Source: Bacillaceae bacterium (GTDB lineage: Bacteria; Bacillota; Bacilli; JACDOE01). From it: a stretch of DNA of 64,000 nt. The notes under the pieces are model-generated. The model saw only the letters and a program-made list of their open reading frames with translations. It ran no database searches and was not told where the DNA came from. The position numbers and the translations under genes are program-made. Below are positions 1,758-25,544 of the stretch, in pieces; within the stretch, counting starts at the first letter, position 1; each line of letters starts with the position of its first letter. The stretch lies in contig JACDOE010000010.1 in the NCBI GenBank assembly GCA_017656255.1, positions 36,400-100,399 on the forward strand, given 5' to 3'.

Positions 1758-1778
1758 GTCGACACCTCCATCAGGATA

Positions 1779-3535: not shown

Positions 3536-3544
3536 TTTACTCTG

Positions 3545-7308: not shown

Positions 7309-7989
7309 TTATTGTCTTCGTAATGAAAGGTTAGATAACTTAACGAAGCGTTTATATTTAAGAATAGTATCTAATACATCGCAAAGAATTAACATATTAG
7401 ACTCTTCCCCTGGAAAGTCACCCCAACTATCGTCATCGTTGCGAATGCTCATTAACCATTTGAAACCTTTTTCAATAGTGTTATGCCAAGAATAATCATC
7501 AAGGAGTTCACTCGCTAATATTAATGCTCGAATACTGTCACAAGTGTGGTCAACATTCATGTTATCGTAATGTCCTTCAGGATGTTGAGTCTTAACCAAG
7601 TATTGAACTGCTTTCTTAGAAGCTTTAACACCTTTCTTATCATATCCAAGAGTCTTTTGTAATAAGTGTGCTGTAACACAAACTGGTGTTTCATACTTTT
7701 CTTTATATTCCCATTCACCATCCTTACCCTGTCTTTCTATAATAAACTCCATAGCTTTGTTGTAAGGTTCTTCTACCATGTTTCTAATACGTTGTGGTAT
7801 ATCTGGAAGCATTCTAGCGAACATCAATGTACCGGCGCTTACACTAACAGCATCATAGAGTCCCCACTTATCATCCCACAAAGTCCCATCCTCTTTTTGT
7901 TGAGTGATTAACCAGGATAACCCATTATAAATTGCATTATCAAATCGCTCATTCCTCTGAGACAATGCATTATTAGCACGTAGAAGCAT
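7309..7989 (-). CDS. Prenyltransferase/squalene-cyclase-type (QW-like) repeat protein, possibly a fragment
   Basis: Repeated Q-x2-DG-x-W motifs (QQKEDGTLW, RQGKDGEW, NDDDSWGDFPG); only 226 aa and abutting the sigK repeat junction. Confidence 0.4.
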   Translation of the reverse strand: MLLRANNALSQRNERFDNAIYNGLSWLITQQKEDGTLWDDKWGLYDAVSVSAGTLMFARMLPDIPQRIRNMVEEPYNKAMEFIIERQGKDGEWEYKEKYETPVCVTAHLLQKTLGYDKKGVKASKKAVQYLVKTQHPEGHYDNMNVDHTCDSIRALILASELLDDYSWHNTIEKGFKWLMSIRNDDDSWGDFPGEESNMLILCDVLDTILKYKRFVKLSNLSLRRQ

Positions 7990-8149
7990 TTGTGTAGAAA
8001 ACGCAGTTTTTCTTACATGGCTTTTAATTTCCTTAGTGGTATTTCCCCAGCCACCATCCTCATGTGGGATAGAGCCCCATCTGAATTAACAGGGTCTGGG
8101 GTTTACACAGAAAAATTGACAGACCCTCCCCTTATTTTGACGTGTGCTT

Positions 8150-8887
8150 TTATTTGCGTTCCGGATGTTTGCGGTAAAATTCATGCAGCAGCTTCATCAA
8201 GGCCCTTTTTTCAATCCGGGAGACATAGGAACGTGAAATCCCCAGCTCTCTGGCAATTTCCCGCTGCGTCTTTTCTTCTCCCGATTCAAGCCCGAACCGG
8301 CCGATGATCACCTCCTTTTCTCTTTTATCCAGCACGTGAATGTTTTTGTAGATCTTGCTTCGTTCGATTTTGAATTCCACTTTGTCGATGACTTCGTTGG
8401 CGTCTGTTCCGAGGATATCCATCAGGCTGATTTCGTTACCTTCTTTGTCGGTGCCGATTGGATCGTGGAGGGAAACGTCTTTGCGGGTTTTTTTGAGGGA
8501 GCGCAGGTGCATGAGGATTTCATTTTCAATACATCTTGCTGCGTATGTGGCCAATTTGGTCCCTTTGTTTACCTTGTAACTTTCGATGGCCTTGATCAGC
8601 CCGATGGTGCCGATGGAGATCAAGTCTTCGCTGTCTTCGCCGGTGTTTTCAAATTTCTTGACGATATGCGCCACCAGGCGAAGGTTATGCTCGATCAGCA
8701 TATTCCGTGCCTCAACATCTCCCTGTTCCATCAAGCGTAAGTATTTCTCCTCGTCTTCTTCCGACAGTGGCTGGGGAAAGGCATTGTTCTTGACGTAGGA
8801 GACGAACAGAATCAGTTCTTTGTACAGAAGCGCCAGTAACCCGAGCAGTCCAGACACCCGATCCCACCTCCAGGAATAGTGCTTCAT
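8150..8887 (-). CDS. sigK: RNA polymerase sporulation sigma factor sigma-K (pro-sigma-K), intact
   Basis: 245-aa ORF with pro-sequence and conserved sigma-70 regions 2-4 ([84 protein letters not shown]), closely matching B. subtilis SigK from memory. Confidence 0.9.
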
Positions 8888-9061
8888 TTATGCCTATTCC
8901 CTTCTGGGCTTGTTTGTGTCTGTACTAAAAAAACTGTAATCAGTTTTATTTGCTTTTTTAAATTCTTTAAGTAAGTATCATATAACACCATAACAGACAG
9001 TAAAAGACAAGATCCCGGTTTGAATACCGAGATCATCACAGTAACTTAATACATCTCTAAT

Positions 9062-9562
9062 TTAATTAACCTTCTGATCATAAAACGCAATGGCCTCATC
9101 TATTAATTTTTCAAGATGTGGTTTAAGTTCAATTGCTTTTGATTTAGCTTTGTGTGTGTCATAGCCTAAATCAATTAAAAATGCATATGTACTAACCATT
9201 TCCAAAAACTGAGAACTTTCCTTGACCATAGAATTCAAAAGATCAGTATTAATTTTTAAAGAGTATCCTCCATCAGCTTCTAAAGTTTCTTTAAATGCTT
9301 TCCCCTTCTTAGTAATAGAGTACACATAAGCTTCATCGTTTTTTGATTCAGTTAGAAATCCTTGTTGTACTAAAGTATTTATCTCTTCTTGAAGTTCTGC
9401 AGAATATGGGCCATAAAAGTGGTATTCATACTTAAATGGTAAATCTAATCCGGCTGATTCAAGCAAATGCACCATCTTTTGTACCTTTTTTCGACCGTGT
9501 ACCTTTTTAATTTCATCAAACAGACTCAATAAACTGTAGGCTCCTTCGAACAATTCAATCAC
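9062..9562 (-). CDS. Panacea (DUF4065)-like protein, possible antitoxin-type partner of the HD protein
   Basis: GRKKVQKMVHLL...FYGPYS resembles the Panacea/SocA-like signature; start overlaps the HD gene stop (ATGA). Confidence 0.35.
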   Translation of the reverse strand: MIELFEGAYSLLSLFDEIKKVHGRKKVQKMVHLLESAGLDLPFKYEYHFYGPYSAELQEEINTLVQQGFLTESKNDEAYVYSITKKGKAFKETLEADGGYSLKINTDLLNSMVKESSQFLEMVSTYAFLIDLGYDTHKAKSKAIELKPHLEKLIDEAIAFYDQKVN

Positions 9563-10869
9563 CCTCCAAAAATTTCATTTTTATAATCTTCGGGCATAAA
9601 GTATCTATCTATAGAGATTTTTTTATTTCTAATTCCATTAATTATATCAGAGATCACTGATAATTCTGTACCATTTCCGTTATTATCAAATAAAATTATT
9701 TGCTCTGAAGCTTCACGTTCGCCTTCTTTTTCATCCGTTTTGGGCGTATGAAAAATATAGGGATCTTTGTATGAACTACTTTTAGCTTCGTCCATTAGAA
9801 AGTAGTACTTAATTGGAATGCCTTTTTTGTTTGAATATTCGAATACCTCCTGCCAAAACTCCATAGGACTTTTGTCTGGAATGGAAACTGACTTAAAAAA
9901 CTTTCTTCTTAATAGTCGAGTACAAAGATCGCTCAATATCGAATCTTGGTGTCTACTCCATATCGAAATAAAATACCAAATCGTATTATCTGTTAAATTA
10001 ATATAATTATGTAGTGTTTCTTTAAGGTTGCCTTTTTCTGATAAAATCCGAATCAAATCTTCAGGAAATTCAATCTCCTGTTTTTCTTGAAAAATCTCAT
10101 AAGCTCTATTAAATATTTTATCTACTAGTAGTTCAGCGCTCCGAGTTGTTTTGTGAAAATACACATTCATATACATATAGTACCTTGCCATAACAAAATC
10201 TTCGGCTATACTAATACCTTTTTCAAGATCTAACCCTACCTCAATTTGACCATTATATTCACCGATTCTCAATACATTTATCATCCATTCAAGATCGAAT
10301 GAACCGTAGCCTGCACCAGTCATTTTAGAGTCTCTTAATAAATAATCAATTCTATCTGTATCTAACTGACTTGATAACAATTTCACAAGAGCTTTGGATC
10401 TATGAGTTCGTTGAATAACATCAGCAACTTCATCTGGGTCCACATTGTACTTTTTGAGAACGCTATTGATTTCTGTATCCCCACGTATTATTTCTATTGT
10501 CCACTTTTCATGTCTAACGCCAGTTGTTTTTTCTAAAGCATGGGAAAAAGGGCCATGCCCAATATCATGTAGGAGTGCTGCAGTTAATGCTAACATTCTA
10601 TTATCAGCTAGCTCTTGAGAATATTGTTTGTATTGTTCATCCTTTAAGCTACATATCTTATTAATAAATCTTTTAGTTAAATGTGTCACACCAATAGAAT
10701 GAGCAAACCGAGTATGTTCGGCTCCTGGATATGTAAATGACGATAATCCAAGTTGTTTTATATGGCGTAGTCTTTGAAATTCTTGGGTATCTATTAATTC
10801 CAAAAGCAAAGCATCTGATTCTTTATCAAAATGAATAATATTATGTACGGGATCACGAATAGTTTTCAC
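9559..10869 (-). CDS. HD-domain dNTP triphosphohydrolase-like protein (dGTPase/SAMHD1 family)
   Basis: Motifs RFAHSIGV, LLHDIGHGPFSH, DTDRIDYLLRD characteristic of HD dNTPases; 436 aa. Confidence 0.7.
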   Translation of the reverse strand: MKTIRDPVHNIIHFDKESDALLLELIDTQEFQRLRHIKQLGLSSFTYPGAEHTRFAHSIGVTHLTKRFINKICSLKDEQYKQYSQELADNRMLALTAALLHDIGHGPFSHALEKTTGVRHEKWTIEIIRGDTEINSVLKKYNVDPDEVADVIQRTHRSKALVKLLSSQLDTDRIDYLLRDSKMTGAGYGSFDLEWMINVLRIGEYNGQIEVGLDLEKGISIAEDFVMARYYMYMNVYFHKTTRSAELLVDKIFNRAYEIFQEKQEIEFPEDLIRILSEKGNLKETLHNYINLTDNTIWYFISIWSRHQDSILSDLCTRLLRRKFFKSVSIPDKSPMEFWQEVFEYSNKKGIPIKYYFLMDEAKSSSYKDPYIFHTPKTDEKEGEREASEQIILFDNNGNGTELSVISDIINGIRNKKISIDRYFMPEDYKNEIFGG

Positions 10870-10917
10870 ATTATCACCCCATTATAAAACTCTTTAATTA
10901 TTATCTAACTCGACAAA

Positions 10918-11556
10918 CTAGAATGCATTGTGTTTTCCCATTTGTCTCAGTACTTCTAATCTATCTAAACAACTTGTACATAATAAGCAATGTCGATCCC
11001 CTAAAGCATTACAAGAAAAGGTTTTTTCTATTGGTACTGACATGTTAATTGCCTCATCAATTACAATCTGTCTGTCTAAACCCACAAATGGAGTGATCAA
11101 TTCAAATTCATGAAGTGATTCTGAAAGAGTAGTAGATATGCTCTCTATAAATGACTTACTTGTATCCTTATAAGATCTTGACCCAGTCACACCTATTGCT
11201 ATTTTTCGTATATCGTTTTTATACGCATATGCTCCAGCCAAAGATATTAAAATCATATTTCTGTTCGGAAAAAACTCGGTATTAAACCATTCTTCTGCTG
11301 AATATCCTGATTGAGGACTATCCCCCACAAGTGATCCAGAGCCAAGGTGCTTCATATTAGAAATGTCTAAAAATAAGACTTTATCCGCATACTCATTTCC
11401 TATTATTGATTTAATTGCTCTAATTTCGCCAGACACTGTTACTTGCCCATAGTTAATATGAATAGGGAATATATCGTATTTTCTTTTTCGCAACCAATAA
11501 TAAAGAACAACAGAATCAATGCCCCCTGATAATAATAATACGACTTTTTTTCTCAT
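10918..11556 (-). CDS. QueC-like PP-loop ATPase (7-cyano-7-deazaguanine synthase family)
   Basis: PP-loop SGGIDS near the N-terminus and a C-terminal Cys cluster (C-x8-C-x2-C-x2-C) as in QueC. Confidence 0.75.
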   Translation of the reverse strand: MRKKVVLLLSGGIDSVVLYYWLRKRKYDIFPIHINYGQVTVSGEIRAIKSIIGNEYADKVLFLDISNMKHLGSGSLVGDSPQSGYSAEEWFNTEFFPNRNMILISLAGAYAYKNDIRKIAIGVTGSRSYKDTSKSFIESISTTLSESLHEFELITPFVGLDRQIVIDEAINMSVPIEKTFSCNALGDRHCLLCTSCLDRLEVLRQMGKHNAF

Positions 11557-12818
11557 AATATATACAACTTCTCTATTAATTCTTCAATAGATTCAACTAT
11601 AACATTACAACCATAAACTAGCATATTATTTAATTCAAACTGTGAGGTTTTTAAAGCAATTATAGGGATACCTCTTTCATAAGCAAACCCAACTTCAAAA
11701 CATGTACCCGGATCATTATGATCTAACAATGCTACCACAACATCAGATTGTCTTATCAAGTCAAGATCTTTATCAAAAATATTTTTGCGTTCATCCATTG
11801 GTGTGTCTTTCTTTATAATTCCATTTTCTCGTAGAGGTGATAAAACTTTAAATCCACAATTTTCTATTCTATTCGTTATTAATTTAACCCAATCCTCTTC
11901 CTGTTTACTAAAAAATGGACCTGCCAAGTAAACGCTTTTGTCTGAATTACCAGATACAACAATTTCTCTTCTGTCCATATCTTCTTCTACCGCTACTCTA
12001 TTTATTATATTTTCAATTGTAAAATTCTCAATGAAGTTAGCAGCAACACAACTTGCTAACCTCGTACTATACTCAATATCCCTCGTCCTGAGAAATGTAG
12101 CAGCTAATGCACCACCAAAAACATCACCAGAGCCTAAAGTGCATTTAACATTACTTTTATACGCCGGTATATGTATAGTCTTTCCTTCGTTTACTAGAAT
12201 ACAACCTTTATATCCTCTTTTTACGATTATGTACTTAGGCCCCATATGAATTAACTTTTCAATAGCATTCTCTAAAGTATTTGCTTGAGTTAATAATAAA
12301 ACCTCTTCCTCATTTACTAAAAGTACAGATACATATTCTAAAATTTTTCTAGCATCATGAATTGATTTGCTATTTGGTTTTGGGTCAAGAAAAACAGGAA
12401 TATTTTTTTCACATGCTTGCTTACATAAATCTTCCGGAAGCGAGTGATCCACTGGAAATACTAAGATACCCTCACATTCATCACTTAGCTGTGGATTATA
12501 TTCAATACCGATTTTAACATCTATCAAAGGAGTACTTTTTTTAACTTCATAAGCTTTATAACCTTTTACTAAATATTTTGGCAGACAATAATTTTCCATA
12601 TATTTAGCACTCGAAAAACTTACACCCATTAAGTTCCATATTTTTATACTATATGAATCGATTTCGGGCCCGTATACTGTCATAAACTCAACATTGATGC
12701 CTTGTTTTGCTGCAGATATTGATGCATATAAACCGGCTCCCCCAAATCTATCGATAATCTTTGTATCATAATCTAATAATAAGTCAATACCTATCTCTCC
12801 GTATACAGCAATATTCAT
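11553..12818 (-). CDS. PfkB-family kinase fused to a nucleoside 2-deoxyribosyltransferase-like domain
   Basis: N-terminal ribokinase-like motifs (GGAGLY; TLGSGDVFGGALAA); C-terminal NDT/Rcl-like motifs (VYLAGPFF; DPGTCFEVGFA with putative catalytic Glu). Start set at the internal Met with a GAGGTG RBS; the track ORF runs to 12866. Confidence 0.6.
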   Translation of the reverse strand: MNIAVYGEIGIDLLLDYDTKIIDRFGGAGLYASISAAKQGINVEFMTVYGPEIDSYSIKIWNLMGVSFSSAKYMENYCLPKYLVKGYKAYEVKKSTPLIDVKIGIEYNPQLSDECEGILVFPVDHSLPEDLCKQACEKNIPVFLDPKPNSKSIHDARKILEYVSVLLVNEEEVLLLTQANTLENAIEKLIHMGPKYIIVKRGYKGCILVNEGKTIHIPAYKSNVKCTLGSGDVFGGALAATFLRTRDIEYSTRLASCVAANFIENFTIENIINRVAVEEDMDRREIVVSGNSDKSVYLAGPFFSKQEEDWVKLITNRIENCGFKVLSPLRENGIIKKDTPMDERKNIFDKDLDLIRQSDVVVALLDHNDPGTCFEVGFAYERGIPIIALKTSQFELNNMLVYGCNVIVESIEELIEKLYIL

Positions 12819-12823
12819 CGGTA

Positions 12824-13534
12824 TCACCTCACGAATTGAAAGTATCCGTTTCTCCCTAATATCCATAATAAATAGTCCATCTTACCTAAAGGCACTCCAA
12901 TCTTCAAGCAAATAATTCGTAATGCTTCTTCATATTGTAAGTAAACCTTTTCTGTTATGTTTTTAGGAATATTATATCCTAAGTAACCAAGAAATCTTAG
13001 TATATGGATATCCAGTACTGCACAATCATTATTAAATCCTGTATTCCTTAATAGCCAACTAGCTGATTTCATGCCAATACCTGGACATTCACATAGCCAT
13101 GTTCTAGCATCAAATGAATTAAGTTCATTAAGTTTATCAAATAATCTCCAGTGACAGTTCTCCCAAAGCCAATATCCAGCCTTGGATATAACCTTAGGCT
13201 TCGTTTCCACAAATCTATATTTTCTGAACTGGCCGTTACAAGTAATGGGATAAAACTGCTTTTTTGATAACTCTCTCTTTATTACATTTTCAATTATATA
13301 TAAGTTAGATATAGAGGAATAATATTTTGCTTCGATTAACCCTTTATTCTTTAATACATGTAAACCTGATTTGTTTAACTCATAACTGATTCCAAATCCT
13401 CCAAGAACTACGAAAAAAAATTCATCTATAACTTGTTCATTAGATTTTGAAACAAACGAAAACTCTCTTTCAATTGCAATACCATAAGTTTCCCAAAGTT
13501 CTTTTAACACATTGAATGCTCTAGTATTTTCCAT
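12824..13534 (-). CDS. Ogg-type HhH-GPD DNA glycosylase-like protein
   Basis: Helix-hairpin-helix with Lys (CPGIGMKSASWLL) followed by an Asp motif (VLDIHILR), matching the 8-oxoguanine glycosylase/AP lyase pattern. Confidence 0.6.
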   Translation of the reverse strand: MENTRAFNVLKELWETYGIAIEREFSFVSKSNEQVIDEFFFVVLGGFGISYELNKSGLHVLKNKGLIEAKYYSSISNLYIIENVIKRELSKKQFYPITCNGQFRKYRFVETKPKVISKAGYWLWENCHWRLFDKLNELNSFDARTWLCECPGIGMKSASWLLRNTGFNNDCAVLDIHILRFLGYLGYNIPKNITEKVYLQYEEALRIICLKIGVPLGKMDYLLWILGRNGYFQFVR

Positions 13535-13540
13535 ATCACT

Positions 13541-13891
13541 TTACGCCTCTACCTCTACTGTAACCTTCGGGTCATGTTGATTCCCTTCTTTTTTTATTAC
13601 AACCCCCTTGTATTCCCACCCTTCTTCAATACATTTTAAGAGCCAACTGTATTTTGGAGGAACGACCCCTATACTAAAATTATCTTTTTCTTTTTTTACT
13701 TCCATGACCGGCAATGTATCATCATTTCTTAAGATAATAGACACTTCATCATTCACAGAAACATTTCTCCACACTGCTTTTTGATTCTCATTAACAATTA
13801 ATAAAATTGTAACTTTTTCACCGCATCTATTTACTGTTTTTCCAGTTCCTCCTCCAAAACCACCAAATGATGAAAAGCCACCACTTCCCAT
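13541..13891 (-). CDS. Small protein with glycine-rich N-terminus (unknown function)
   Basis: 116 aa; N-terminal GSGGFSSFGGFGGG; strong RBS (TAAGGAGGA); first or second gene of the block B operon. Confidence 0.4.
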   Translation of the reverse strand: MGSGGFSSFGGFGGGTGKTVNRCGEKVTILLIVNENQKAVWRNVSVNDEVSIILRNDDTLPVMEVKKEKDNFSIGVVPPKYSWLLKCIEEGWEYKGVVIKKEGNQHDPKVTVEVEA

Positions 13892-14024
13892 ATAAATCCT
13901 CCTTACTAGTTATTTTTTTTTTTGCAATCTTTATAATACTCCAAAACTATTTATATTTAAATTAAATGAAATCTCATTTTGATCACTTCTTTTGTAAATT
14001 GTCTAATGTGCTTAGAATATGTTA

Positions 14025-14450
14025 TTATTTCTCTAGACCAAATTCTCTTTTTAATTTATTAAAGTCATATTCTTTTATTTCGATTGGGATACTAAGGTTC
14101 TTAAGTTTTGACATCAAATCGCTTTTATTAACAACAGGTTTGTCCTCGTAAACAATTGCGAATATCAATTTAAAATTATTTATTGAAGCACTGTCTAAAT
14201 TTTTAGCTGTCTGATATAACGATTCAATAACATTACGAGTTAACTTACCTCGTTTATTATATTTTATCTCAAATCCATAAGTTGAATTATCAGTTTTACT
14301 AATACCATCAATTTCAATTAACTTATCAGAAGATTTAAATGCCATGTGTCTCTGAATAGGAATTTTAAATTCTTGTTCAAGTTTCCTAAACACCAAATCT
14401 TCAGCTAAAAAGTATTGCATTTTGGGATCAACAGTCACTTTGGAAGGCAT
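14025..14450 (-). CDS. Hypothetical protein, possible PD-(D/E)xK-like fold
   Basis: 141 aa; spaced D...E-x-K residues (IEIDG, FEIKY); weak RBS; in-frame open sequence upstream without an ATG suggests possible truncation. Confidence 0.3.
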   Translation of the reverse strand: MPSKVTVDPKMQYFLAEDLVFRKLEQEFKIPIQRHMAFKSSDKLIEIDGISKTDNSTYGFEIKYNKRGKLTRNVIESLYQTAKNLDSASINNFKLIFAIVYEDKPVVNKSDLMSKLKNLSIPIEIKEYDFNKLKREFGLEK

Positions 14451-15283
14451 GTCTAACGTACCCGCTTTATCCTCTTCAATATTATTATCACTAGAAGATT
14501 CTTCAAGCTCTGCTTCTGCTTTCTTTCTTTGTGAATCACTAGTTAATTTTAAGAAATTCCCTTCATCCTTAAAATCACTTGGCGCATATAATTTGGTATG
14601 ATAAAAATCACAAGTCTATAAAATGTAAATAAAACAAGTAAAGGGAAAATTACTATGAAACACACAAGGAACCATTTTTGAGAAACATTTAATTCCGAAC
14701 TAAATTGAAGTACTAATGCTGCTATTCCATAAATTAGTGATATAAATAATGCAATGATACCTAAGGGGTTCTTTGTAAAACCTGATGCACTTCTCGTGAA
14801 TTCTATTATTATCGCTCACCTTCCTTGTAAAAATTTTAAAATGATGCCAACGTTACTCATTCTTAATACCAATCCAAATCATATCCGTGGACAAAAATGG
14901 CTGGAAAATATAAAACATGTCTGAGTATCAAAAAATTAATCTTTTAATATAACATTCTTCTCTTTTTTCTCATTAACTCCTCCTAGCTTTTGTGCACACC
15001 AATATATTAAAAAACAATCTTCAAAACTATACTTACTCCTTTTAGATCAAAGATCAAAAAATCCCTAACAAAAAAATTAGTGTTTATTCTCAATTGTATT
15101 TCGGTAAAAAAACAGATAATCCCTTTTAGGACAAATAAAAAATAATTAGTAAGGATATCACTCTATACTATATACTTATCTGAATTAATAGGTTTAATTG
15201 GTTTTATAATTATCTTCTTTTAGCTATTTGAAACCCCCCCTGACCCAGCACCACACCAGCATTCTTCCGACATCGCTTCGTGT

Positions 15284-15561
15284 TCACAACCTCTTGACGA
15301 TATGCGCCACCAGGCGAAGGTTATGTTCGATCAGCATATTTCGCGCCTCAACATCTCCCTGTTCCATCAAGCGTAAGTATTTCTCCTCGTCTTCTTCCGA
15401 CAGTGGCTGGGGAAAGGCATTGTTCTTGACGTAGGAGACGAACAGAATCAGTTCTTTGTACAGAAGCGCCAGTAACCCGAGCAGTCCAGACACCCGATCC
15501 CACCTCCAGGAATAGTGCTTCATTTATGCCTATTCCCTTTTGGGCTTGTTTGTGTCTGTAC
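15284..15561 (-). pseudogene. sigK: Orphan sigK 5' fragment (36-bp leader plus codons 1-77, then VKRL-stop)
   Basis: 15292-15561 matches 8654-8925 of the intact sigK with 4 mismatches, all synonymous or in the leader; homology ends at codon 77/78. Confidence 0.85.
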
Positions 15562-15742
15562 CGGAGATTTGTTTTTGCTCTTTTGTTAAAAACTGTTTAA
15601 GCATTTTTAACACTAGCGTTCTCAAATAAATTTAATGTTTCTGTCCTTCACTTCTTTTTTCTACAAGTAAACAAACATCCCGCAATACCTTAATAGTAAT
15701 GCGGGATATTATGAGAACCTTTTAGACATACCCTTCTTTACC

Positions 15743-18346
15743 TTATAACCTCGGGTCAATTTCTTTCTCTTTACTTACTTCAAATAGCATGTTAGCAACC
15801 ACCTGTTTATATTTATGATCTGACTCATTTATTTTATCTAAATGAAAGGCCAACATCTCTTTCCCAAGTTTGAATTCATTGATAGAGGTTTTTAGTTTCT
15901 TTGAAATATTTTTTTGCTTTAAAAGCTTGGCATATTTGTGTGGAAAGCGATAATCATATCCATAAACAATGGTTAAATAATCTGGATTGCGAACTTTCAT
16001 ATAAGGGGCAGTATCATCTGCCAATTTTTCAGGTTTAATCACGACACCTTCCATTTTTCTTTCTGTTGTCAAAGTCTTAAAAAAGGTTAAAGCTTTTTCA
16101 TAATAATCCTGTTCGTTTAAATCGATCAACATAAATTCATCATCAGATACAAACTTAAAAATTTCCGATGTTGATTCTGCAGGGATGATCTCTTCTCCAT
16201 TTTCCTTGACCATTTTTAAAATATTAAATGGTTTATAGTTAATCTCATCATCCTTTGCATAGAGCTCGATTTGTTCATGATATTTTTGATGGGCTTCCAC
16301 ATGTTTTTCTATTGGTTCATATGACTTTAACATAGTTTGCAACGCCTTATAAGTCTGGTAAGTGGCACCGCCAAACTTTTTAATCAAATCTTTCTTAGAC
16401 ATTGTTTGCTGATCGACTTCATAGTCACTTGATTTATATTGCTCAACAAGTTTTTGAAAGTGGGCATCAAAGCCTTGCTCCTTTAAAAAATCCAACTCTG
16501 TTTGTAAAGCTCTGTCTATAGTCCTAAATTGCTTTTCAATCAATTCCTCTCCCAAAATAGACCAGGGCAGTAATTCACCATCAAACACGATTGTTTTTAT
16601 TTTATTCTCTTTCATGTAATCCGAAAATTTATTTAACAGATTATCATATACCGGAGACAAATCCACTTTCTTAATTTTAAATCCATTTCGACTCACTGCA
16701 TAACATTGATCTAGTTCCCTTGCTAAGTAAATGTTACATCTTGACCCCATGTACTTCGGTTGCAAAACCACTTTATGGACGCCTTTTCTCTTAAAATACA
16801 ACAACCCCTGTTTTAAAGATTCCAATTCATTGCTATCCAAATCTTTGTCAGCCGGCGACATGGTACCAGAAATATAATTAATCTTATTTTTCAAGACATA
16901 ATTAAGGCGCTTTTGGTCCTGTTCATGTAAATCCTCGATGTTAACATGTTTATCTCTTTGTTTAAATAAAGTAGGTAAAGGTTCGTTCCAGTATTTACTA
17001 GTGCTTGTAATTCGCTGCTGTTTAAAAAACGGTCTCCAGGAGTCAATCACAACAGAAGAAAGAACATTTCCATTGGCAGCTCCCGTATCAATGTTAATCT
17101 TATTTTTAATTTGGACTATTTCTTTTACAGCAACATGTCCAAAAATATGATACGGATGATTTCCAACACTCTCTGACTCCAGAAAGTGCAATTGCTCCTC
17201 GTAGGGTTTTTCTCGATCAAGAACAAAGCTTCTTTGCTTTTTCAGAGACGTTTTATCTAACTTCCCTATATATTTGTTTTGACACGGAGCATGTGTCACA
17301 TAAAAGGAAGGCTTTTGTAATCCAATATACCTGTAGAATTCTTTCGAAGATTCAACGAGTCGGAAAAATTTGTGTTTTAAATCCTCATCCTTTTCAAAGA
17401 TTTCTATAGAGTCAAAGTAGTTGTCTAGTAAACTTGAATCTACTGAATTCTTATCAATTTCACCTTTCAAGTATTTGTAAACAAAATTCTCATGATTTCC
17501 TTTTACAAGCACAAAATGATCCATATTTTGTTCAATAAATTCTACCGTCTCTTTGGTAGCATTTCCTTTGTCAATCCAGTCTCCGTTAAGAATAATTTTA
17601 TATTCATCCGTTTTTTCAGTGGATAAAATACGATTATTTTCAATATTAAACCCATAGCTGATAAGCAGCTTTTTTAAATCAGCCACTTTTTCATGAACAT
17701 CTCCAACAATTATATATTTGTGTTCCTGCGGCAAAATATGACTGAGATAATGATCTAAATCCTCTATCATAATTTTATAATTTGCATTCGGTTCATTGGT
17801 ATCAGGGTTATAGAAATCCCGCTCCCTAATTTTGTGTATTCGACGAAATTTTGACTTTGAAATTTGTTTCAGAACCTCTCTTTTGAGACGAGTGACATGA
17901 TTTGAAATTAATCGTCTTGAACCACCTGAAGCATAGAAATCTTCTCTATTTTTAAAATCAAAAAGTATAGCTTCCAGGTTATATTGCTTTTCTTTAGCAA
18001 TTTCCATGATTTGCTCACGGAATTCTTCTGAAAGGCCAATTGTATCAACAATGACGAACTCGGCGTTAATTGGAAATGACGTAACGGCTTTTAGTTTCTC
18101 AAATAAAATATGAAAGGCTTGTTCGCTGCTTTCCATCATAATTCTGTCATGTTTGTCATATTCATGTCCCAAAATATCCTGCCTGATTTCATCAGAGGAA
18201 ATATATTGAACATTGGTTTTAAAGCCCCGATCCTTATCCTGAATAGAAAGTTGAGGCAACAATATTTCTTTAGCAAATGTTGATTTACCGGAATTAGTAG
18301 CACCAATTAACATAAATATGGTATGCATATTTGTTTTTAATTCCAT
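15743..18346 (-). CDS. pnkp: Polynucleotide kinase-phosphatase (Pnkp): kinase, metallophosphatase and ligase-like domains
   Basis: 867 aa; P-loop GATNSGKST; calcineurin-like GDVHEK and GNHE motifs; C-terminal domain with a KYMGSR lysine motif; size and order match bacterial Pnkp. Confidence 0.8.
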   Translation of the reverse strand: MELKTNMHTIFMLIGATNSGKSTFAKEILLPQLSIQDKDRGFKTNVQYISSDEIRQDILGHEYDKHDRIMMESSEQAFHILFEKLKAVTSFPINAEFVIVDTIGLSEEFREQIMEIAKEKQYNLEAILFDFKNREDFYASGGSRRLISNHVTRLKREVLKQISKSKFRRIHKIRERDFYNPDTNEPNANYKIMIEDLDHYLSHILPQEHKYIIVGDVHEKVADLKKLLISYGFNIENNRILSTEKTDEYKIILNGDWIDKGNATKETVEFIEQNMDHFVLVKGNHENFVYKYLKGEIDKNSVDSSLLDNYFDSIEIFEKDEDLKHKFFRLVESSKEFYRYIGLQKPSFYVTHAPCQNKYIGKLDKTSLKKQRSFVLDREKPYEEQLHFLESESVGNHPYHIFGHVAVKEIVQIKNKINIDTGAANGNVLSSVVIDSWRPFFKQQRITSTSKYWNEPLPTLFKQRDKHVNIEDLHEQDQKRLNYVLKNKINYISGTMSPADKDLDSNELESLKQGLLYFKRKGVHKVVLQPKYMGSRCNIYLARELDQCYAVSRNGFKIKKVDLSPVYDNLLNKFSDYMKENKIKTIVFDGELLPWSILGEELIEKQFRTIDRALQTELDFLKEQGFDAHFQKLVEQYKSSDYEVDQQTMSKKDLIKKFGGATYQTYKALQTMLKSYEPIEKHVEAHQKYHEQIELYAKDDEINYKPFNILKMVKENGEEIIPAESTSEIFKFVSDDEFMLIDLNEQDYYEKALTFFKTLTTERKMEGVVIKPEKLADDTAPYMKVRNPDYLTIVYGYDYRFPHKYAKLLKQKNISKKLKTSINEFKLGKEMLAFHLDKINESDHKYKQVVANMLFEVSKEKEIDPRL

Positions 18347-19618
18347 TTACTTTTCACCTCTTGCTTTAACCAAAACTCCCTGAGTGGTATAAACCCCGTC
18401 TACACAATCGCCAATACTTAAATGATGAATCTCAAAATCTCGTTCATCAAAAATCTCACTTATCCATTGTTTAAATTCATTTGTCCCCATTTCCCATTTA
18501 TGATCTTCATGCCGATATTCATCCAGGGAATAATACTTATTAAAATCATGATTTGGAGTCGTTATAATAATGGATTCAAAATGAATGTCATCAAGAATTG
18601 TTAAAATTAGTTTTTTAGCCTCATCCTTCTCCATGTGTTCAATGACTTCTGTAAGGATGACATCAACTAATTCCCCATTGTAATCTTCAATAAAATCCTC
18701 AATGGATCCATAAGTTAATATATTTTCAATACCCCTTTTTTTAATTCTTGCATCCAGCGAACGAATGATATCTTCATCAATGTCAATGGCATAATAGTAT
18801 TTGTCACCTATACTTTCGGAGAAAAGAAAGGCATAATAACCTTCCCCACATCCAACATCAACAATTGGTTTGTTGAAGGGTAATAACTTTTTTATCGCTT
18901 CTCTTCTTTGGTGAGCTGTATGTCCGTAAGAAAAGTTTATGTCATACCTTTGTGTTTCTTCCAGGCTTTCTTTAAATTTTGAAAATAATTTCCTGCTGGT
19001 AAGTATGTTTCGTGCAAACAGATACCTTATAAAAAACGGAGCATCCAGGACTTTAATTTGATTAACATACTTTTCAATCAAACTATCTGTAACATCAAGG
19101 TATTCGTTACCTATTAAAGATAAAAATAAAAACAATAGATTAGCTGTATTCAATAAATCATAAATACTTTTGTTCGTTTTGATTTTAATTGAATAGCTCT
19201 TGTGAGATTGATGAATCATTTCGATAGAGAAATCCTCAAAATGTTTGCTAAAAAAATCTATATATCTTGGTAGTGTGATATGAACCATATTCACAAATAA
19301 TTCATTTTCATATCCTTCAAGATCATTATCATACCGGTTTTTGATTGTGGAATTAAAGAATTCTGTCATTGCGTTTAATGGAAAAAGAGGTGTATTATAT
19401 CTTGAAACATTTAGATATTCAAAGCTTTCTTCTTTATGTTGCTTGTAAGATATCTCGTTGTCAGCGTCCTTAAAATATATATTGTAGGTTTGATCATCAG
19501 AATACCAGCCAAACGCAATTCCCTGTCTGACTGTACGCAACATCATGCCTGAAGCTGGATTTTTGCGTATTAAAAAAGAAAAGTGCGGATTCGTTGATTT
19601 TAACTGAACAATAGCCAT
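18347..19618 (-). CDS. hen1: Hen1-like RNA 3'-terminal ribose 2'-O-methyltransferase
   Basis: 423 aa; C-terminal class I MTase motif (VDVGCGEGYY); stop abuts the pnkp start. Confidence 0.7.
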   Translation of the reverse strand: MAIVQLKSTNPHFSFLIRKNPASGMMLRTVRQGIAFGWYSDDQTYNIYFKDADNEISYKQHKEESFEYLNVSRYNTPLFPLNAMTEFFNSTIKNRYDNDLEGYENELFVNMVHITLPRYIDFFSKHFEDFSIEMIHQSHKSYSIKIKTNKSIYDLLNTANLLFLFLSLIGNEYLDVTDSLIEKYVNQIKVLDAPFFIRYLFARNILTSRKLFSKFKESLEETQRYDINFSYGHTAHQRREAIKKLLPFNKPIVDVGCGEGYYAFLFSESIGDKYYYAIDIDEDIIRSLDARIKKRGIENILTYGSIEDFIEDYNGELVDVILTEVIEHMEKDEAKKLILTILDDIHFESIIITTPNHDFNKYYSLDEYRHEDHKWEMGTNEFKQWISEIFDERDFEIHHLSIGDCVDGVYTTQGVLVKARGEK

Positions 19619-19773
19619 CTACTTTCACTCCTGTTATTTCCCTCAATCATTTTCCAATAAACCAATAAACTTTAATTGCTATACTAACCTGATTCCCAGT
19701 TCAAAAGAATAATCAAATAAAATATGAAAAGAGGAAAAATGTAGTCCCCTTTTCCTAGTGCTTGGTAAAAATA

Positions 19774-21105
19774 TCATGCTTTTGAAGATATACAACACAA
19801 CATAAAGAGACCAATTATGAATCCATATAAGATTAAAATCCAGTAGCATAAACTTAACACATACTTTCTTTTGATTCGTCGTCTCATCTGAATCCAATAT
19901 TCAATTATAGAGGCTTTAAGTAATATTCGGACATAAAAAAATTGATATATCATAACTAGCAATATAATCCCCGCTGTCATTATTGTCGCAAGTAACAACT
20001 TGAACCAAAAAGAAACAGTTTGAATATCAATCATCATAATAAATAGTAATATGCTGCCCCCTGTTCCTAATGCAATCAGTAACAGCATAGATAAAGAAGC
20101 AATAATTCTTTTAGATAGGGAAATATGGTCAATATTTAACGTTTCCTCCAAAACTTCTTTGTTCTCCTCATGATTTTTTAGTTCGTCAAGATTTTCAATA
20201 CCTCTTAAATCAAAAAAGTCTCTAAACTTATCTAAAAACCACTTAGCTATATCATGTGCATCTTTTTCAAGTTCTTCAGAACGAAGAGATAATTGGATAT
20301 ACTTTTCATCTTTATCTGTCGTGTCTTCAATAACACCTTTAACTCCCTCTCCCCTTCTATCAATCTGGATATACATAAGTAATTGATCCTCTTTAATTTG
20401 AAAAATTATCTGAATTTCATCCATCTTATCCCATAGAATTTCCTTTATCGGTTTAAAATCGTATATAAACATAAAAGGTTTCTCATCACTATAGGTATAA
20501 AAAGAGTTGAAATTCATTCTCATATTATCAATAGACACATGGGATTCTGTTTTTAAATTCTTTTTATATCCTTGCCAATTTTTAAACTGATACAAAATGT
20601 AAGATAATGAAAAACCAAGTTCTTTCTGAAGAGCTTCAATTACTTTTTGTACCCATGGATGAGGGAAAACATTAATTTCGTTATATTCCTTCCAATTTGG
20701 CCACTTGTCAAGGGAGCATATCGTGTCAATCGATATATGAAAGAATCCTTTAGAAACCAAATCCTTATCTCCATTTTCTGATTCTTTTACATTGTGAACG
20801 GCAATAGGGGTATCATAGGGAACCTGAAAAGAAAAGGAAAATTCTAATTTTTCACCAATTTCAATTTTACGTTCTTTTGCAATCGTAGTTTTTAACAGTG
20901 GGACACGAGAATATATTAAGTCGTCACGGGTATCCATTTTTGTTGTAATCTGAATGACTAATTCCTTAATTATTCTTTCCTGTATTCCTCCCTGAACTAT
21001 TACTTTGCCCGATACTTGTTCACCGGGGCGGTAATAATTTTTATCCAGAATAGTCTTGATTGCTATATCTCCATGTCTTAGCCTCCAAAGCTTTTTTCTT
21101 AACAT
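19774..21105 (-). CDS. Spo0M-like (arrestin-like) protein fused to a C-terminal multi-pass membrane domain
   Basis: N-terminus DKNYYRPGEQVSGKVIVQGG resembles Spo0M; the C-terminal ~130 aa are strongly hydrophobic. Confidence 0.45.
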   Translation of the reverse strand: MLRKKLWRLRHGDIAIKTILDKNYYRPGEQVSGKVIVQGGIQERIIKELVIQITTKMDTRDDLIYSRVPLLKTTIAKERKIEIGEKLEFSFSFQVPYDTPIAVHNVKESENGDKDLVSKGFFHISIDTICSLDKWPNWKEYNEINVFPHPWVQKVIEALQKELGFSLSYILYQFKNWQGYKKNLKTESHVSIDNMRMNFNSFYTYSDEKPFMFIYDFKPIKEILWDKMDEIQIIFQIKEDQLLMYIQIDRRGEGVKGVIEDTTDKDEKYIQLSLRSEELEKDAHDIAKWFLDKFRDFFDLRGIENLDELKNHEENKEVLEETLNIDHISLSKRIIASLSMLLLIALGTGGSILLFIMMIDIQTVSFWFKLLLATIMTAGIILLVMIYQFFYVRILLKASIIEYWIQMRRRIKRKYVLSLCYWILILYGFIIGLFMLCCISSKA

Positions 21106-21664
21106 ATTTTCACCTACTCCTTAAAAGCCTTTTATCAATTTCATATTCTACAAATTTCAACAATTACCTTTAAGTAGAAAAGGCATAAAGAAAGGAGATA
21201 AATATTGCCGCTAATCCCCATGGCTAAATAATGGGCCAAAAGAGAGTAAGATTGCAGATTGTCCTTATTATTATTTTGATCTGGCCAGTACATATCAGGG
21301 TGCTCTATAAGATATTCCTTTTAATCTTTGTAGTCGAATCTTTTGATACCCCCCATCTGAACTCTCGGAAGTGACAATTTCGATGTTAGCACCTAAATCT
21401 TTTAAACGGTTATATAATTATATCCCTTGATAACATTCTTAGAGCTATTTCAAATGTCCCCGATGTCGTTTATAATATGACTACCTTTTCTTATAAACTT
21501 CTTTTCTTCTGCTTTTTGTAGAATATGTTTTAGGTTAACTTCATAATATAAAAACTTGCCCCCAAACAAATTTTTCTCTAATGGTCTATTCCAGGTAATA
21601 CATAATCTGAAAAAGGCCAACCTTTTGTAGGAAAGCCAAACATATAAATACCCTCCCTAAAAAA

Positions 21665-22810
21665 TCAAAAAGATAAACCTTTAAAACCATGAGAGGTGGA
21701 AATGGCCAGGATTCTGTCAGATTCATCCACCTCATGTTTAAGTTGTGTGATAGCACTCCAGATCGTGGCTGACGACGTTTCCAAATACAATCCATATCTC
21801 CCTAATTCCTGTTGACTTTGCAACGCATTTTGAAGGTTAACGACTTTGACCAGGCCCTTTGTATCAGTAATCGTCTTTTTTAACTGATACGTTACCGTTG
21901 ACCCACTGATAGAAGGAAGGCCATCAGATACACCTGCAAAATGATTTCTGTAATCTTCACCTTTTATGACACGCGTTAATCTGGGAAACGGTTCCACCGC
22001 TACAAATTTTGGGATTTCATTAATCCATCCAAGTTCTCTGGCGTCCCTGAAACCGCGATATATGCCCCAGATTAAATCGCCTCGAGAAGCTGGCGCTACA
22101 ATAATACTCGGCAGCGTCTCTTTCAGTTCTTCCATAATTTCATAGGCAATCGTTTTATATCCTTCAACCCCAAACACATGACTGCCGACGGGTGGGTTAA
22201 TGAAATTTGTTGCAGGATACCACCCTTTGTTTGAAACGGCTTTCTCCATACAGTCCCAGCGACTCAATGAAGTTTGCGTATAAATCATTTTGGCTCCGGT
22301 CATTTTAATCGCTTTAGAGTATGTCTTCTGAATGGCATCCGTAGCGATAATGACACATTTCAGACCAGAAGCAGCACTATAACTGGCTATCGACACGCCG
22401 GCATTGCCTGATGAAGCGGCCACCACTGTCGAATACCCCATGTTCTTCGCTCTTGCCATGATGAGAGGACTCATTCGATCTTTGTGAGAACCGGTCGGAT
22501 TTTGAGCTTCATTTTTGATCCAGACATGGCGAACACCGATTTGTCTGGCTAAATCCCTTAATTCCATGATAGGAGTCGATCCTTCTCCCAATGTAGGAAA
22601 AGAACGATAAGGCAATAAATCGGTGTATCTTTGTAAGCCTCTTTGTGACCGGTCAATATTAACTTTTTGATAATCATACAGAGCAGTCAAACTGGCCGGA
22701 TACCCTTCTTCCAGACAAAGAGGACATCCTTTGAAATAATCTTTGACTTCAAAGATAGAATGACATCGAATGCATTGGAAACCGATCATATTTTTGTTTA
22801 ATTGATACAT
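21665..22810 (-). CDS. PLP-dependent threonine synthase-like enzyme with N-terminal zinc ribbon
   Basis: PLP-lysine motif TGSHKDR, glycine-rich SSGNAG loop, N-terminal CxxC...CxxC; start set at the internal Met with a GGGGA RBS. Confidence 0.55.
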   Translation of the reverse strand: MYQLNKNMIGFQCIRCHSIFEVKDYFKGCPLCLEEGYPASLTALYDYQKVNIDRSQRGLQRYTDLLPYRSFPTLGEGSTPIMELRDLARQIGVRHVWIKNEAQNPTGSHKDRMSPLIMARAKNMGYSTVVAASSGNAGVSIASYSAASGLKCVIIATDAIQKTYSKAIKMTGAKMIYTQTSLSRWDCMEKAVSNKGWYPATNFINPPVGSHVFGVEGYKTIAYEIMEELKETLPSIIVAPASRGDLIWGIYRGFRDARELGWINEIPKFVAVEPFPRLTRVIKGEDYRNHFAGVSDGLPSISGSTVTYQLKKTITDTKGLVKVVNLQNALQSQQELGRYGLYLETSSATIWSAITQLKHEVDESDRILAISTSHGFKGLSF

Positions 22811-23513: not shown

Positions 23514-25544
23514 TCACATAAACCGTTTCATCAATTGTAACCGGTTCTTGACCCCGGTCTTTTTAAGAATGCTGCTGACATGCTTTTTCACCGTAATCTC
23601 CGTGACATGCAGCTGTTTCGCTATCTCTTTATTGGAGAGCTCCTGCAGGATCAGTTTGACAATTTCTTTTTCCCGTTCCGTCAATTGAAACTGTTCAGCC
23701 AGCTCATGCAGATTCTGATCCTCAGCAAACAGGTGGGACGTGATCTTCTTAAGATAGTGAGCCAGTTTCGGCCCGCGCAAATCCAGCACATAAGTGGGAG
23801 AGGGCTGATCAGGACCGTAGTCATAGTGAGTGGCACCATCCACCTGTTGATATCCCATTCGTTTGTTAAGTTCCTGATAAAAAGGGATCGGCGTAGATAC
23901 AATAATGCGTCCACCGGTGAGAAGAAGAGGAAAGAGGTTATACAGGAGAAACGAGCGGATATCCGCATTGGTCGGATCAAGAACATCCAGCATCCGGATA
24001 AACCACCCGGCACACCGATCTTCTCGGACCGCATATTCCTTTTCTTCATCCGGGCTTAGACGGCTAAAATACGCTCTCGAGACAGGCTCCGTTTTCAGGT
24101 GAGGCAGAGTGCGTTCATTGATGGGGACAATGATGGACAGACCCAGCGTCTCACCCTGCCTGTTTTTAACCAGTTTTGCCGAATCATACCCCATTTTTTT
24201 CACATAATCGGCACCGATTAATTCCGATTCCTTTTTGTTATGCTGGGCTGTAACATAATAATGATACATTTCATCGGTTTCCCGGTTATAAAAATGGGCA
24301 CTTGTTTCGATCGCCTGTTTTTTTCGCCTGTCAAAGTACTCTTCTATCTCGTGAAAATTGTGGGGCCCTACGTGTTCAATATACTTGTCATCATCCAGCG
24401 CCCCCTGGAAAAAGGTGGATTGAATAACCCTGTCCCCCATATGGTAAAAGAACTGGGCCACATCCCAGTAGGATACAGATTGTTCGTTAATTTTGTTGTA
24501 ATAATAAGTCATGGCTCGCTGGCGCAAAGCCTGGCACCGATCCGGATTTCGCTGTTGCAATTCAACTTTAATGGCATCACCGATCAATTCATGCAACATC
24601 CAGCCACGGCTGTTCTTTTTAATAAAGGAGAGTGAGACGAATGCTTTAAATTGAGAGGCGGAAATTTCCTGCTCCAGCAGAAATGAAAGAGAGGATTGAT
24701 CGAAGTGTCCCATGACGGCCGCCGCTTCCAGCATATCATGCCACTCCGGTTCCGATACTTCTTCCAGCCATTTGTGGGTAAGCTCCGTTAAGATATCTAT
24801 TTTTTCATCTGCTTCCGGGAGAGATGACAGATTTTCCTCCCCGGCCATCACGGCCAGCGACAGCGTGAGCGGGTGTCCCTGGCTGAACAGCCACAGATTA
24901 CGAATCGTCCTGTCTTCTTTAATGTCATAGCGATTTAAATACTGGCGGGTTTGCGAACGGGTAAACTCCTTAATCTCAAGCTTTTGGACCATCCTTCGCC
25001 ACGCCGGCGATTGCGACCAGGTTCCGGACAACGGAAACCGGCCGGCAAGGATGATCTTCACCTGCCCGGGGAGTTGTTCCAGAAAGAACTCTCGAATCCA
25101 GCGATCCATATCACCCATTTTTTCATAGGTGTCAATGGCGATAACCACCCGGTTATCCCGGACCAGCTTTTCCAGCATATTGACCACGTAGGTCAGACTA
25201 CTGGAATGGTTTGAAAGTGGCATGTTCAACTGGCTCTCCAGCGCAGCCAGCAGATTGTGGGCCAGTGTAAATGGTGAGTGCAGAAAGTCCTGGCTGTCCA
25301 GCATCAGGAAAATCACATCTTTTTCACGTTCAGCCACCCTCTGAAAGGCGTGAAGCAGATACGTCTTGCCGGTTCCACCGGTTCCGTACAGATTGAGAAC
25401 ACGTGGGGTTTCTTCACGTTGTTGAAGAAAACGGCGAAATACATCCAATTCTTTTTCCCGTCCGACAAAGAAATGCTCTTCCATCCTGCTTACAGCCGAA
25501 CCCATTTTTCCCACTTGCTTGTTCGGCTCTTTAGAAACTTCCAT
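23514..25544 (-). CDS. ATPase-domain (STAND/MalT-like) LuxR-family transcriptional regulator
   Basis: N-terminal Walker A (GTGGTGKT); C-terminal LuxR HTH (LTEREKEIVKL...NKEIAKQLHVTEITVKKH). Confidence 0.65.
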   Translation of the reverse strand: MEVSKEPNKQVGKMGSAVSRMEEHFFVGREKELDVFRRFLQQREETPRVLNLYGTGGTGKTYLLHAFQRVAEREKDVIFLMLDSQDFLHSPFTLAHNLLAALESQLNMPLSNHSSSLTYVVNMLEKLVRDNRVVIAIDTYEKMGDMDRWIREFFLEQLPGQVKIILAGRFPLSGTWSQSPAWRRMVQKLEIKEFTRSQTRQYLNRYDIKEDRTIRNLWLFSQGHPLTLSLAVMAGEENLSSLPEADEKIDILTELTHKWLEEVSEPEWHDMLEAAAVMGHFDQSSLSFLLEQEISASQFKAFVSLSFIKKNSRGWMLHELIGDAIKVELQQRNPDRCQALRQRAMTYYYNKINEQSVSYWDVAQFFYHMGDRVIQSTFFQGALDDDKYIEHVGPHNFHEIEEYFDRRKKQAIETSAHFYNRETDEMYHYYVTAQHNKKESELIGADYVKKMGYDSAKLVKNRQGETLGLSIIVPINERTLPHLKTEPVSRAYFSRLSPDEEKEYAVREDRCAGWFIRMLDVLDPTNADIRSFLLYNLFPLLLTGGRIIVSTPIPFYQELNKRMGYQQVDGATHYDYGPDQPSPTYVLDLRGPKLAHYLKKITSHLFAEDQNLHELAEQFQLTEREKEIVKLILQELSNKEIAKQLHVTEITVKKHVSSILKKTGVKNRLQLMKRFM

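Follow-up and report, generated by a model that had tools for sequence, protein, structure and literature searches.

An intact, horizontally acquired, predicted RNA repair cassette of the Hen1-Pnkp type in a Bacillaceae genome belongs to a poorly annotated sister clade of Pnkp-Hen1

Two reconstituted bacterial RNA repair systems contain the methyltransferase Hen1. According to Wang, Selvadurai & Huang (2015; PMC4411300), Pnkp-Hen1 occurs in ~250 species and is always encoded in one operon, and Pnkp1-Rnl-Hen1 is found in 10 species, where Pnkp1 is T4-like, the ligase Rnl is a protein of its own and the hen1 gene is unlinked. We refer to the first system, typified by Clostridium thermocellum (Cth) and Anabaena (Ava), as canonical; the second is represented by the heterohexamer of Capnocytophaga gingivalis (4xrp, 4xru). 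Here, we analyzed a 64,000-nt stretch of a Bacillaceae bacterium genome (assembly GCA_017656255.1, contig JACDOE010000010.1, positions 36,400 to 100,399), referred to as the window, which encodes on its minus strand a 423-aa Hen1-like protein directly followed by an 867-aa Pnkp-like protein. The locus is complete, was gained horizontally and falls into a sister clade of Pnkp-Hen1 that is widespread but poorly annotated. We consider it highly probable that the pair is a self-contained "heal, mark and seal" RNA repair cassette of the Hen1-Pnkp kind, carried on a small segment low in guanine plus cytosine (GC) that was gained horizontally by the ~50% GC genome of a spore-forming Bacillaceae.

A sequence-only reading of the window had described two directly abutting open reading frames encoding a Hen1 and Pnkp-type RNA repair pair, and both statements hold. 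Base by base, the two genes meet at ...aag TAA ATG gaa..., where the hen1 stop codon (18349-18347) abuts the pnkp start codon (18346-18344). In Pfam, the 867-aa protein matches AAA_33, Metallophos (E=8e-12) and PNKP_ligase (E=1e-34), and the 423-aa protein matches Hen1_N (PF22032, E=1e-93) over the full length of the profile, followed by class I methyltransferase families. The 423-aa protein is therefore more than a generic methyltransferase, and the 867-aa protein does have ligase homology, as the sequence-only reading required. Table 1 lists the coordinates of the genes, their domains and the surrounding features.

Table 1. Features of the RNA repair locus and its surroundings in the window (GC3, GC at third codon positions; UTR, untranslated region; MFS, major facilitator superfamily)
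Feature	Position	Strand	Remarks
hen1-like gene	18347..19618	-	open reading frame, 423 aa, Hen1_N-type
Hen1 N-terminal domain (aa 3-224)	18947..19612	-	PF22032, profile positions 1-222 of 222
Hen1 methyltransferase domain (aa ~236-418)	18365..18913	-	predicted 3'-terminal ribose 2'-O-methyltransferase type
pnkp-like gene	15743..18346	-	open reading frame, 867 aa; kinase, metallophosphatase and ligase
5'-OH polynucleotide kinase domain (aa ~8-190)	17777..18325	-	AAA_33; weak match to Cth Pnk 4gp6
Binuclear metallophosphoesterase, predicted 2',3'-phosphatase (aa 210-432)	17051..17719	-	Metallophos; Cth phosphatase 4j6o, E=7e-5
ATP-dependent RNA ligase (adenylyltransferase) domain, Rnl-like (aa 478-867)	15746..16915	-	best solved relative 4xru_B
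Shine-Dalgarno-like motif before hen1 ATG	19628..19632	-	AGGAG, read in the sequence
Shine-Dalgarno-like motif for pnkp	18355..18360	-	GAGGTG, read in the sequence, within the hen1 3' end
Probable intrinsic terminator after pnkp	15662..15713	-	GC-rich hairpin, then U-tract
Spo0M-domain protein, 443 aa	19774..21105	-	Pfam Spo0M E=8e-24 (N-terminal); hydrophobic C-terminal region; GC3 0.28
Partial sigK copy, 270 nt	15292..15561	-	38 nt of 5' UTR and 77 codons; direct repeat with 8656-8925, 4 mismatches; GC3 0.66
Island A	8926-15291		low GC, GC3 0.22-0.26; seven co-oriented genes
Intact sigK	8150-8887	-	native composition
Island B	3921-8146		low GC; 226-aa squalene-hopene-cyclase/prenyltransferase-repeat protein, MFS transporter, class I methyltransferase
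sigK 3' fragment, 379 nt	3542-3920		near-identical copy, 2 mismatches

The ligase half of the Pnkp-like protein has its strongest match among solved structures in the C. gingivalis Rnl chain 4xru_B (195 bits, ~32% identity), with 67 bits for the Cth Pnkp ligase (3ty9), and the N-terminal half gave weak matches to the Cth phosphatase and kinase domains. The Pnkp1 chains of 4xrp and 4xru had no match to the window Pnkp even at E<=10. In tblastn searches, proteins named polynucleotide kinase-phosphatase by the Prokaryotic Genome Annotation Pipeline (PGAP) aligned with it in a single collinear stretch, from residue 9 to 867, at 21-23% identity. The two window proteins were then aligned with 76 Pnkp and 70 Hen1 relatives from their clade and with six canonical pairs. 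All the catalytic residues tabulated are identical to the canonical and clade sequences: in the kinase, K21, S22, D52 and R55 (Cth K21, S22, D38 and R41); in the phosphatase, D216, H218, D256, N284, H285, H352 and H404; and in the ligase, the Lys531 nucleophile (in KYMGS), E591, E766/G767/K771 and K784/R786, which are conserved in all sequences aligned. There are two non-catalytic differences, a lysine in place of Cth Arg237 and a variable Ser/Thr in the P-loop.

The Hen1-like protein aligned with C. gingivalis Hen1 (4xrp_C) over nearly its whole length, residues 3-418 (E=3e-37, 132 bits, ~29% identity), and with the Cth and Ava Hen1 proteins in the methyltransferase domain only. This domain matched the Cth/Ava structures 3jwg, 3jwi and 3jwh, as well as human and plant HEN1. 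Its D-x-G-x-G motif for S-adenosylmethionine (SAM; D254/G256/G258) and its metal and catalytic residues (E324, E327, H328, H370, H373 and E376) do not vary across the 70/70 Hen1 proteins of the clade or the 6/6 canonical ones, so that, at the sequence level, the predicted active site of a Mn2+-dependent 3'-terminal ribose 2'-O-methyltransferase is present. With their reading frames intact and the checked residues of four active sites kept, both genes look fully functional. The N-terminal domain is of a different family from the canonical one: Hen1_L (PF12623) was not matched by the window Hen1 at E<=0.01, and the canonical Hen1 of Nostoc scored 393 bits against Hen1_L with no Hen1_N match at E<=0.001.

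The sequence-only reading had equated the pair with the Martins-Shuman/Chan et al. system. The architecture is indeed the same, but the pair falls outside that family proper. Against the NCBIfam equivalog models, whose cut-offs are 750 bits for TIGR04075 and 340 bits for TIGR04074, the window Pnkp reached 187.1 bits and the window Hen1 72.3 bits, the latter over the methyltransferase part only. Similarly, the PNKP_ligase score was 121 bits, compared with 611 bits for the canonical Pnkp of Nostoc. Neighbor-joining trees of the ligase domain and of Hen1 separated the canonical proteins from a group made of the Bacillota-type and Capnocytophaga proteins, with a bootstrap of 200/200 for each protein. 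The window proteins are 51-62% identical to Bacillales-type members of this clade and 36-48% identical to an Enterococcus copy, and they share its features, as a gene for Hen1_N plus a methyltransferase lies directly upstream of a gene for a kinase-metallophosphatase-ligase of ~860 aa. Because of the equivalog scores below the cut-offs, the low identity, the presence of Hen1_N for Hen1_L, the Capnocytophaga-like ligase and Hen1, and the split in the trees, we place the pair, on sequence grounds, not among the canonical (C. thermocellum/Anabaena-type) members but in a second deep, Hen1_N-type fused sister clade.

The gene order had also been taken as unusual, on the view that pnkp normally comes first, and this part of the earlier reading was mistaken. 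In PGAP-annotated records, hen1 precedes pnkp, co-oriented and adjacent, in 6/6 canonical operons (Nostoc, Leptospira, Deinococcus, Asticcacaulis, Methylobacterium and Rhodococcus), and the same order is found in 80/80 genomic loci encoding relatives of the window Hen1, with the two genes practically abutting in 79 of them. It is also found in 10 of 11 viral contigs encoding relatives, and the legend of a figure in Wang et al. 2013 (PMC3675462) names "the Hen1 and Pnkp polypeptides" in that order. Thus, hen1-first is the normal gene order. A canonical Martins-Shuman/Chan-type operon with its genes inverted would share the domain architecture and the collinear Pnkp alignment seen here, but we consider it very improbable, as there is no inversion to explain and the equivalog scores, the N-terminal domain of Hen1, the identity of 17-27% to the canonical proteins and the 200/200 split all stand against it. 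The only pnkp-before-hen1 order that we saw is in the IMG/VR contig L107 (3300045146_000225), where a gap of ~1.4 kb separates pnkp residues 446 and 602. In two other viral contigs, L102 and L103, the kinase part of pnkp lies apart from the phosphatase-ligase part. These interrupted or split viral genes could reflect inteins, homing endonucleases or gene fission.

The sister clade combines traits of both reconstituted systems. As in canonical Pnkp-Hen1, there are two co-oriented genes with hen1 first, the kinase, binuclear metallophosphatase and ligase form one polypeptide that is collinear from end to end, and Hen1 joins an N-terminal module to a C-terminal Mn-dependent 2'-O-methyltransferase with its catalytic residues kept; low identity, Hen1_N and a lysine at the phosphate-binding Arg237 set the window pair apart. 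The closest solved relatives of the window ligase domain and of the whole Hen1 are instead in the C. gingivalis Pnkp1-Rnl-Hen1 heterohexamer. In Capnocytophaga, however, Rnl stands alone whereas the window ligase is fused to the healing domains, Pnkp1 is T4-like with a HAD phosphatase whereas the window phosphatase is a metallophosphoesterase, and hen1 is far from pnkp1-rnl (PMC4411300) whereas the window hen1 abuts its partner. The clade therefore joins the two reconstituted systems, because its fused architecture is like that of Pnkp-Hen1 and its ligase and Hen1 are nearest to Capnocytophaga Rnl and Hen1. This suggests that the Capnocytophaga three-protein complex and the fused clade share a more recent ancestor, with the ligase split or fused and the end-healing enzymes exchanged on one lineage. 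The trees are compatible with the Capnocytophaga proteins either branching beside the Bacillota members or arising from within them.

Hen1_N-type modules in rearranged forms are found in phages. Vibrio phage RYC, Xanthomonas phage XacN1 and Stenotrophomonas phages CM1/RAS14 encode Hen1_N plus methyltransferase proteins with 28-31% identity to the window Hen1, beside a PNKP_ligase-type ligase. Unlike the window pair, XacN1 has its kinase, Hen1 and ligase in separate genes, and RYC (L089, 5001-7154) has a stand-alone ligase and a 717-aa protein in which Hen1, a kinase and a HAD phosphatase are fused; the HAD_PNKP domain of this fusion is not present in the window protein. Fusions of ~715 aa that join Hen1_N, methyltransferase, P-loop kinase and HAD_PNKP phosphatase were also seen in the cluster representatives P0201, P0205 and P0261. 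An RYC-type fusion beside a stand-alone PNKP_ligase-type protein resembles a phage version of the Capnocytophaga system in which Hen1 and Pnkp1 are fused.

The enzymatic activities of the window pair, its complex formation and its in vivo substrate we infer from the reconstituted Pnkp-Hen1 and Pnkp1-Rnl-Hen1 systems (PMC4411300, PMC3675462). On broken RNA, the metallophosphatase domain would take off the 2',3'-cyclic phosphate at the 3' end and the P-loop kinase domain would phosphorylate the 5'-OH. The Hen1 methyltransferase, with Mn2+ and SAM, would then methylate the 3'-terminal nucleotide on its 2'-OH, and the ligase domain, adenylylated on Lys531 and activated by binding of the Hen1 N-domain, would seal the break. 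The mended junction would thus be 2'-O-methylated and resistant to cleavage at the same site. For the ligase-binding and activating role of the Hen1 N-domain we rely on two papers (Wang et al. 2015, PMC4411300; Wang et al. 2013, PMC3675462), and the window N-domain would, by homology, act in the same way. From the strict linkage of the genes alone (80/80 loci), we infer a Pnkp2-Hen1(2) heterotetramer and a ligase that depends on the Hen1 N-domain. The purpose would be shared with T4 Pnkp plus Rnl1 and with bacterial RtcB/RtcA, namely the repair of 2',3'-cyclic-phosphate/5'-OH breaks made by ribotoxins. These systems work without methylation, with unrelated ligase families and different end chemistry, and none of them is encoded in the window.

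The Shine-Dalgarno-like motif of pnkp sits inside the hen1 3' end, which suggests that translation of pnkp may be coupled to that of hen1. Just past the pnkp stop codon, a GC-rich hairpin with a U-tract probably acts as an intrinsic terminator; its RNA fold has a free energy of -26.6 kcal/mol (z = -5.1 against 200 shuffles), and it was missed by a simple consensus scan. That scan, for sigma-70 promoters and terminators in 15200-21700, returned no more sites than in shuffled sequence. No structured RNA was found by Rfam in 1-26000, and no tRNA by ARAGORN in the window. An independent Logan assembly of the reads of SRR13776092 matches the window from 28346 to 15510 with 0 mismatches, so the locus is not an artefact of a single assembly.

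Several points weigh against our reading of the pair as a repair cassette. Neither to our knowledge nor in the literature searched is there a biochemically tested member of the fused Hen1_N-type clade, and the activities are therefore extrapolated across 21-32% identity. The sigma-70 consensus scan found no convincing promoter in the 155-nt spacer upstream of hen1, and neither a ribotoxin nor a regulator linked to the pair was found in the window. The source is a metagenome-assembled genome, which bears on both expression and host assignment. Finally, 3'-end healing may differ from the canonical reaction, because substitutions of R237 in CthPnkp abolish the phosphomonoesterase step and a lysine is found here.

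This lysine, Lys260 in the window protein, occupies the CthPnkp Arg237 position in 76/76 clade members as well, and the residue is an arginine in 6/6 canonical proteins. In CthPnkp, the Km for 2',3'-cAMP is higher in R237A, R237K and R237Q, with the kcat raised or maintained, the arginine mutations are reported to abolish the Mn2+-dependent phosphomonoesterase step, and H189D leads to 3'-OH/2'-PO4 ends. The clade could, by analogy, heal ends differently, with a phosphatase that is only a cyclic phosphodiesterase and leaves a phosphomonoester (e.g., 3'-OH/2'-PO4), so that a Tpt1/KptA-type 2'-phosphotransferase would be needed. The invariant lysine, the behavior of the CthPnkp mutants and the presence of Tpt1/KptA within 8 kb in 10/80 clade and 2/11 viral loci speak for this possibility. 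Nonetheless, we regard it as improbable, since both the Hen1 methyltransferase and the ligase are fully conserved and require a free 2'-OH and 3'-OH, Tpt1 is linked in a minority of loci and absent from the window, and the native context may make up for one conservative change. To the same extent, it is doubtful that the fused Hen1_N-type clade is a mechanistically distinct repair machine whose invariant lysine limits 3'-end healing to opening of the cyclic phosphodiester. If it were true, distinct healing would alter which ends get methylated and sealed and would explain the recurrent linkage to Tpt1/KptA.

Our preferred reading, a Hen1-Pnkp-kind repair cassette, concerns a clade that is common yet hidden by its names. 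Among the scored candidates, 629 were homologous to the 867-aa protein at E<=1e-5; most were of ~861 aa and came from Paenibacillus, Cohnella, Brevibacillus and Bacillus, and the nearest was 61% identical. An exhaustive HMMER search with Hen1 gave 402 cluster representatives (50% identity) at E<=1e-30, including the ~715-aa fusion forms. Membership is mostly Bacillota and phage-borne. In public annotation, the clade Pnkp appears as "metallophosphoesterase", "predicted kinase" or "AAA family ATPase" and the clade Hen1 as "class I SAM-dependent methyltransferase", because neither protein attains the cut-off of any curated NCBIfam model. Taken at face value, such NCBI names would imply two proteins unrelated in function, a generic metallophosphoesterase and a class I SAM-dependent methyltransferase; alternatively, the genes could be decaying relics. 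Either is hardly credible, as the reading frames are intact, four active sites are kept, Hen1_N and PNKP_ligase are specific families, and the linkage is strict in 80/80 loci. Matches of the pair in PADLOC (mad2, mad8 and NsnB) were weak and generic, and we rejected them as P-loop and methyltransferase noise. In the literature searched, no paper named Hen1, Pnkp and Paenibacillus together, and the clade may already figure in the survey by Burroughs & Aravind 2016.

The neighborhoods of the relatives support a role in RNA repair, because their pairs sit among other RNA-repair genes. Within 8 kb of the cassette in the 80 clade loci, we counted a WYL/WCX regulator in 38, an RlaP nucleotidyltransferase in 32, RtcB in 17, Ro60/TROVE in 13, Tpt1/KptA in the 10 mentioned above, NADAR in 10 and a PARG-like protein in 9, with none of these partners in 17. 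The whole window lacks genes for RlaP, WYL, RtcB and KptA, so its cassette is a bare two-gene version, as in about a fifth of the relatives. A conserved trio of Spo0M, hen1 and pnkp, suggested by the gene upstream of hen1, was rejected, since the arrangement is absent in the 80 relatives and in the three closest ones. For the window itself, the result is mainly a clean annotation of an RNA repair cassette that looks functional, is foreign to its host and has the ordinary gene order. More widely, the Hen1_N-type fused form is present under generic names in hundreds of Bacillota genomes and in several large phages. Specialists should find the link to Capnocytophaga, the Arg-to-Lys change and the lack of a curated model of interest, yet these are properties of the clade and not specific to the window. 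The clade would also be a convenient model for the Pnkp-Hen1 heterotetramer, which is still unsolved, and the Arg-to-Lys change poses a specific biochemical question.

The low-GC context and the horizontal acquisition proposed from the sequence were both borne out. Positions 3921-21600 have 33.1% GC, compared with 50.3% in 1-3500 and 48.9% in 22000-64000; the cassette itself has 32.7%, with a GC3 of 0.28-0.31 against 0.54-0.63 in the core genes of the window. Among the 80 relatives, the median difference in GC between cassette and flanks is 0.001, and the atypical composition is thus specific to the window genome, because the cassettes of its relatives match their flanks. Horizontal acquisition of the cassette is therefore well supported. 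The nearest relatives (58-61% identity) have a cassette GC close to that of their flanks and lie in unrelated gene contexts, and because they live in genomes of 34-39% GC, a low-GC Bacillales or a phage is suggested as the donor.

T4 Pnkp/Rnl1 is known to counter RNA cleavage by PrrC, and the window cassette could likewise be phage cargo, a prophage remnant or phage-delivered module that once undid anticodon-nuclease or abortive-infection RNA cleavage by a host. An alignment-based scan of IMG/VR found 11 viral contigs with fused relatives (a single-protein scan of viral contigs gave none), and the closest of them, L099, is 59% and 56% identical, has 32.3% GC, near that of the cassette, and carries its copy among phage-family genes, namely phrog_1735 (929 bits), an HNH endonuclease and two RlaP genes. 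The Vibrio, Stenotrophomonas and Xanthomonas phages described above, most of them jumbo-sized, fit this picture as well, and a copy on a Paenibacillus thiaminolyticus "plasmid" lies among nrdJ, Thg1 and 5'-3' exonuclease genes. However, phage structural, integrase and recombinase genes are absent throughout the low-GC region (3.9-21.6 kb), the neighboring Spo0M-like and 141-aa proteins have no PHROG match, and most relatives are chromosomal and compositionally native. We consider phage cargo unlikely, and the enzymology would be the same either way, as the origin and the selective context alone would differ.

Beyond the cassette, the low-GC region is organized around sigK. The partial sigK copy bounds the cassette segment downstream, and the order on the minus strand is pnkp, the sigK 5' fragment, island A (6.4 kb), intact sigK, island B (4.2 kb), the sigK 3' fragment and core DNA. 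All the sigK pieces have a native GC3 of 0.60-0.66. Exact-protein look-ups for sigK (with two start choices) and for a PALP protein gave no match. We rejected the idea that the duplications are a collapse of the assembly, since the copies carry 4 and 2 differences and the contigs of an independent k-mer assembly stop exactly where a true repeat would make them stop. The repeats and both junctions of island A are real in the reads, because the independent Logan contigs end exactly k-1 bases past the copy-specific variants at the repeat boundaries; these contigs fit both the integrated layout and a chromosome plus a free circle. Skin-type elements interrupt sigK and carry a recombinase, unlike the layout seen here, and no recombinase gene was found in either sigK-flanked island. 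The layout is what circles bearing pieces of sigK would produce on integrating by a single crossover (Campbell-type). As a less probable reading, sigK may act as a recombinase-free insertion hotspot, which low-GC islands enter by a single crossover of such circles and in which the gene stays intact.

Island A encodes a 166-aa DUF4364/DarG-C-like protein, an HD phosphohydrolase, a QueC-like protein (PADLOC QueC, 1e-32), two proteins of unknown function, a fusion of a PfkB kinase and a nucleoside 2-deoxyribosyltransferase, and an Ogg-HhH glycosylase-like protein. The pairing of QueC and OGG recalls the accessory genes of type IV CBASS (cyclic-oligonucleotide-based antiphage signaling system) or of 7-deazaguanine systems; no cyclase or TGT gene was seen alongside them. 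On the other side of the cassette, near the low-GC region and within DNA of core GC, we observed a gene (23514-25544) for a 676-aa STAND-type ATPase (AAA_16/NACHT-like) with a C-terminal LuxR/GerE helix-turn-helix.

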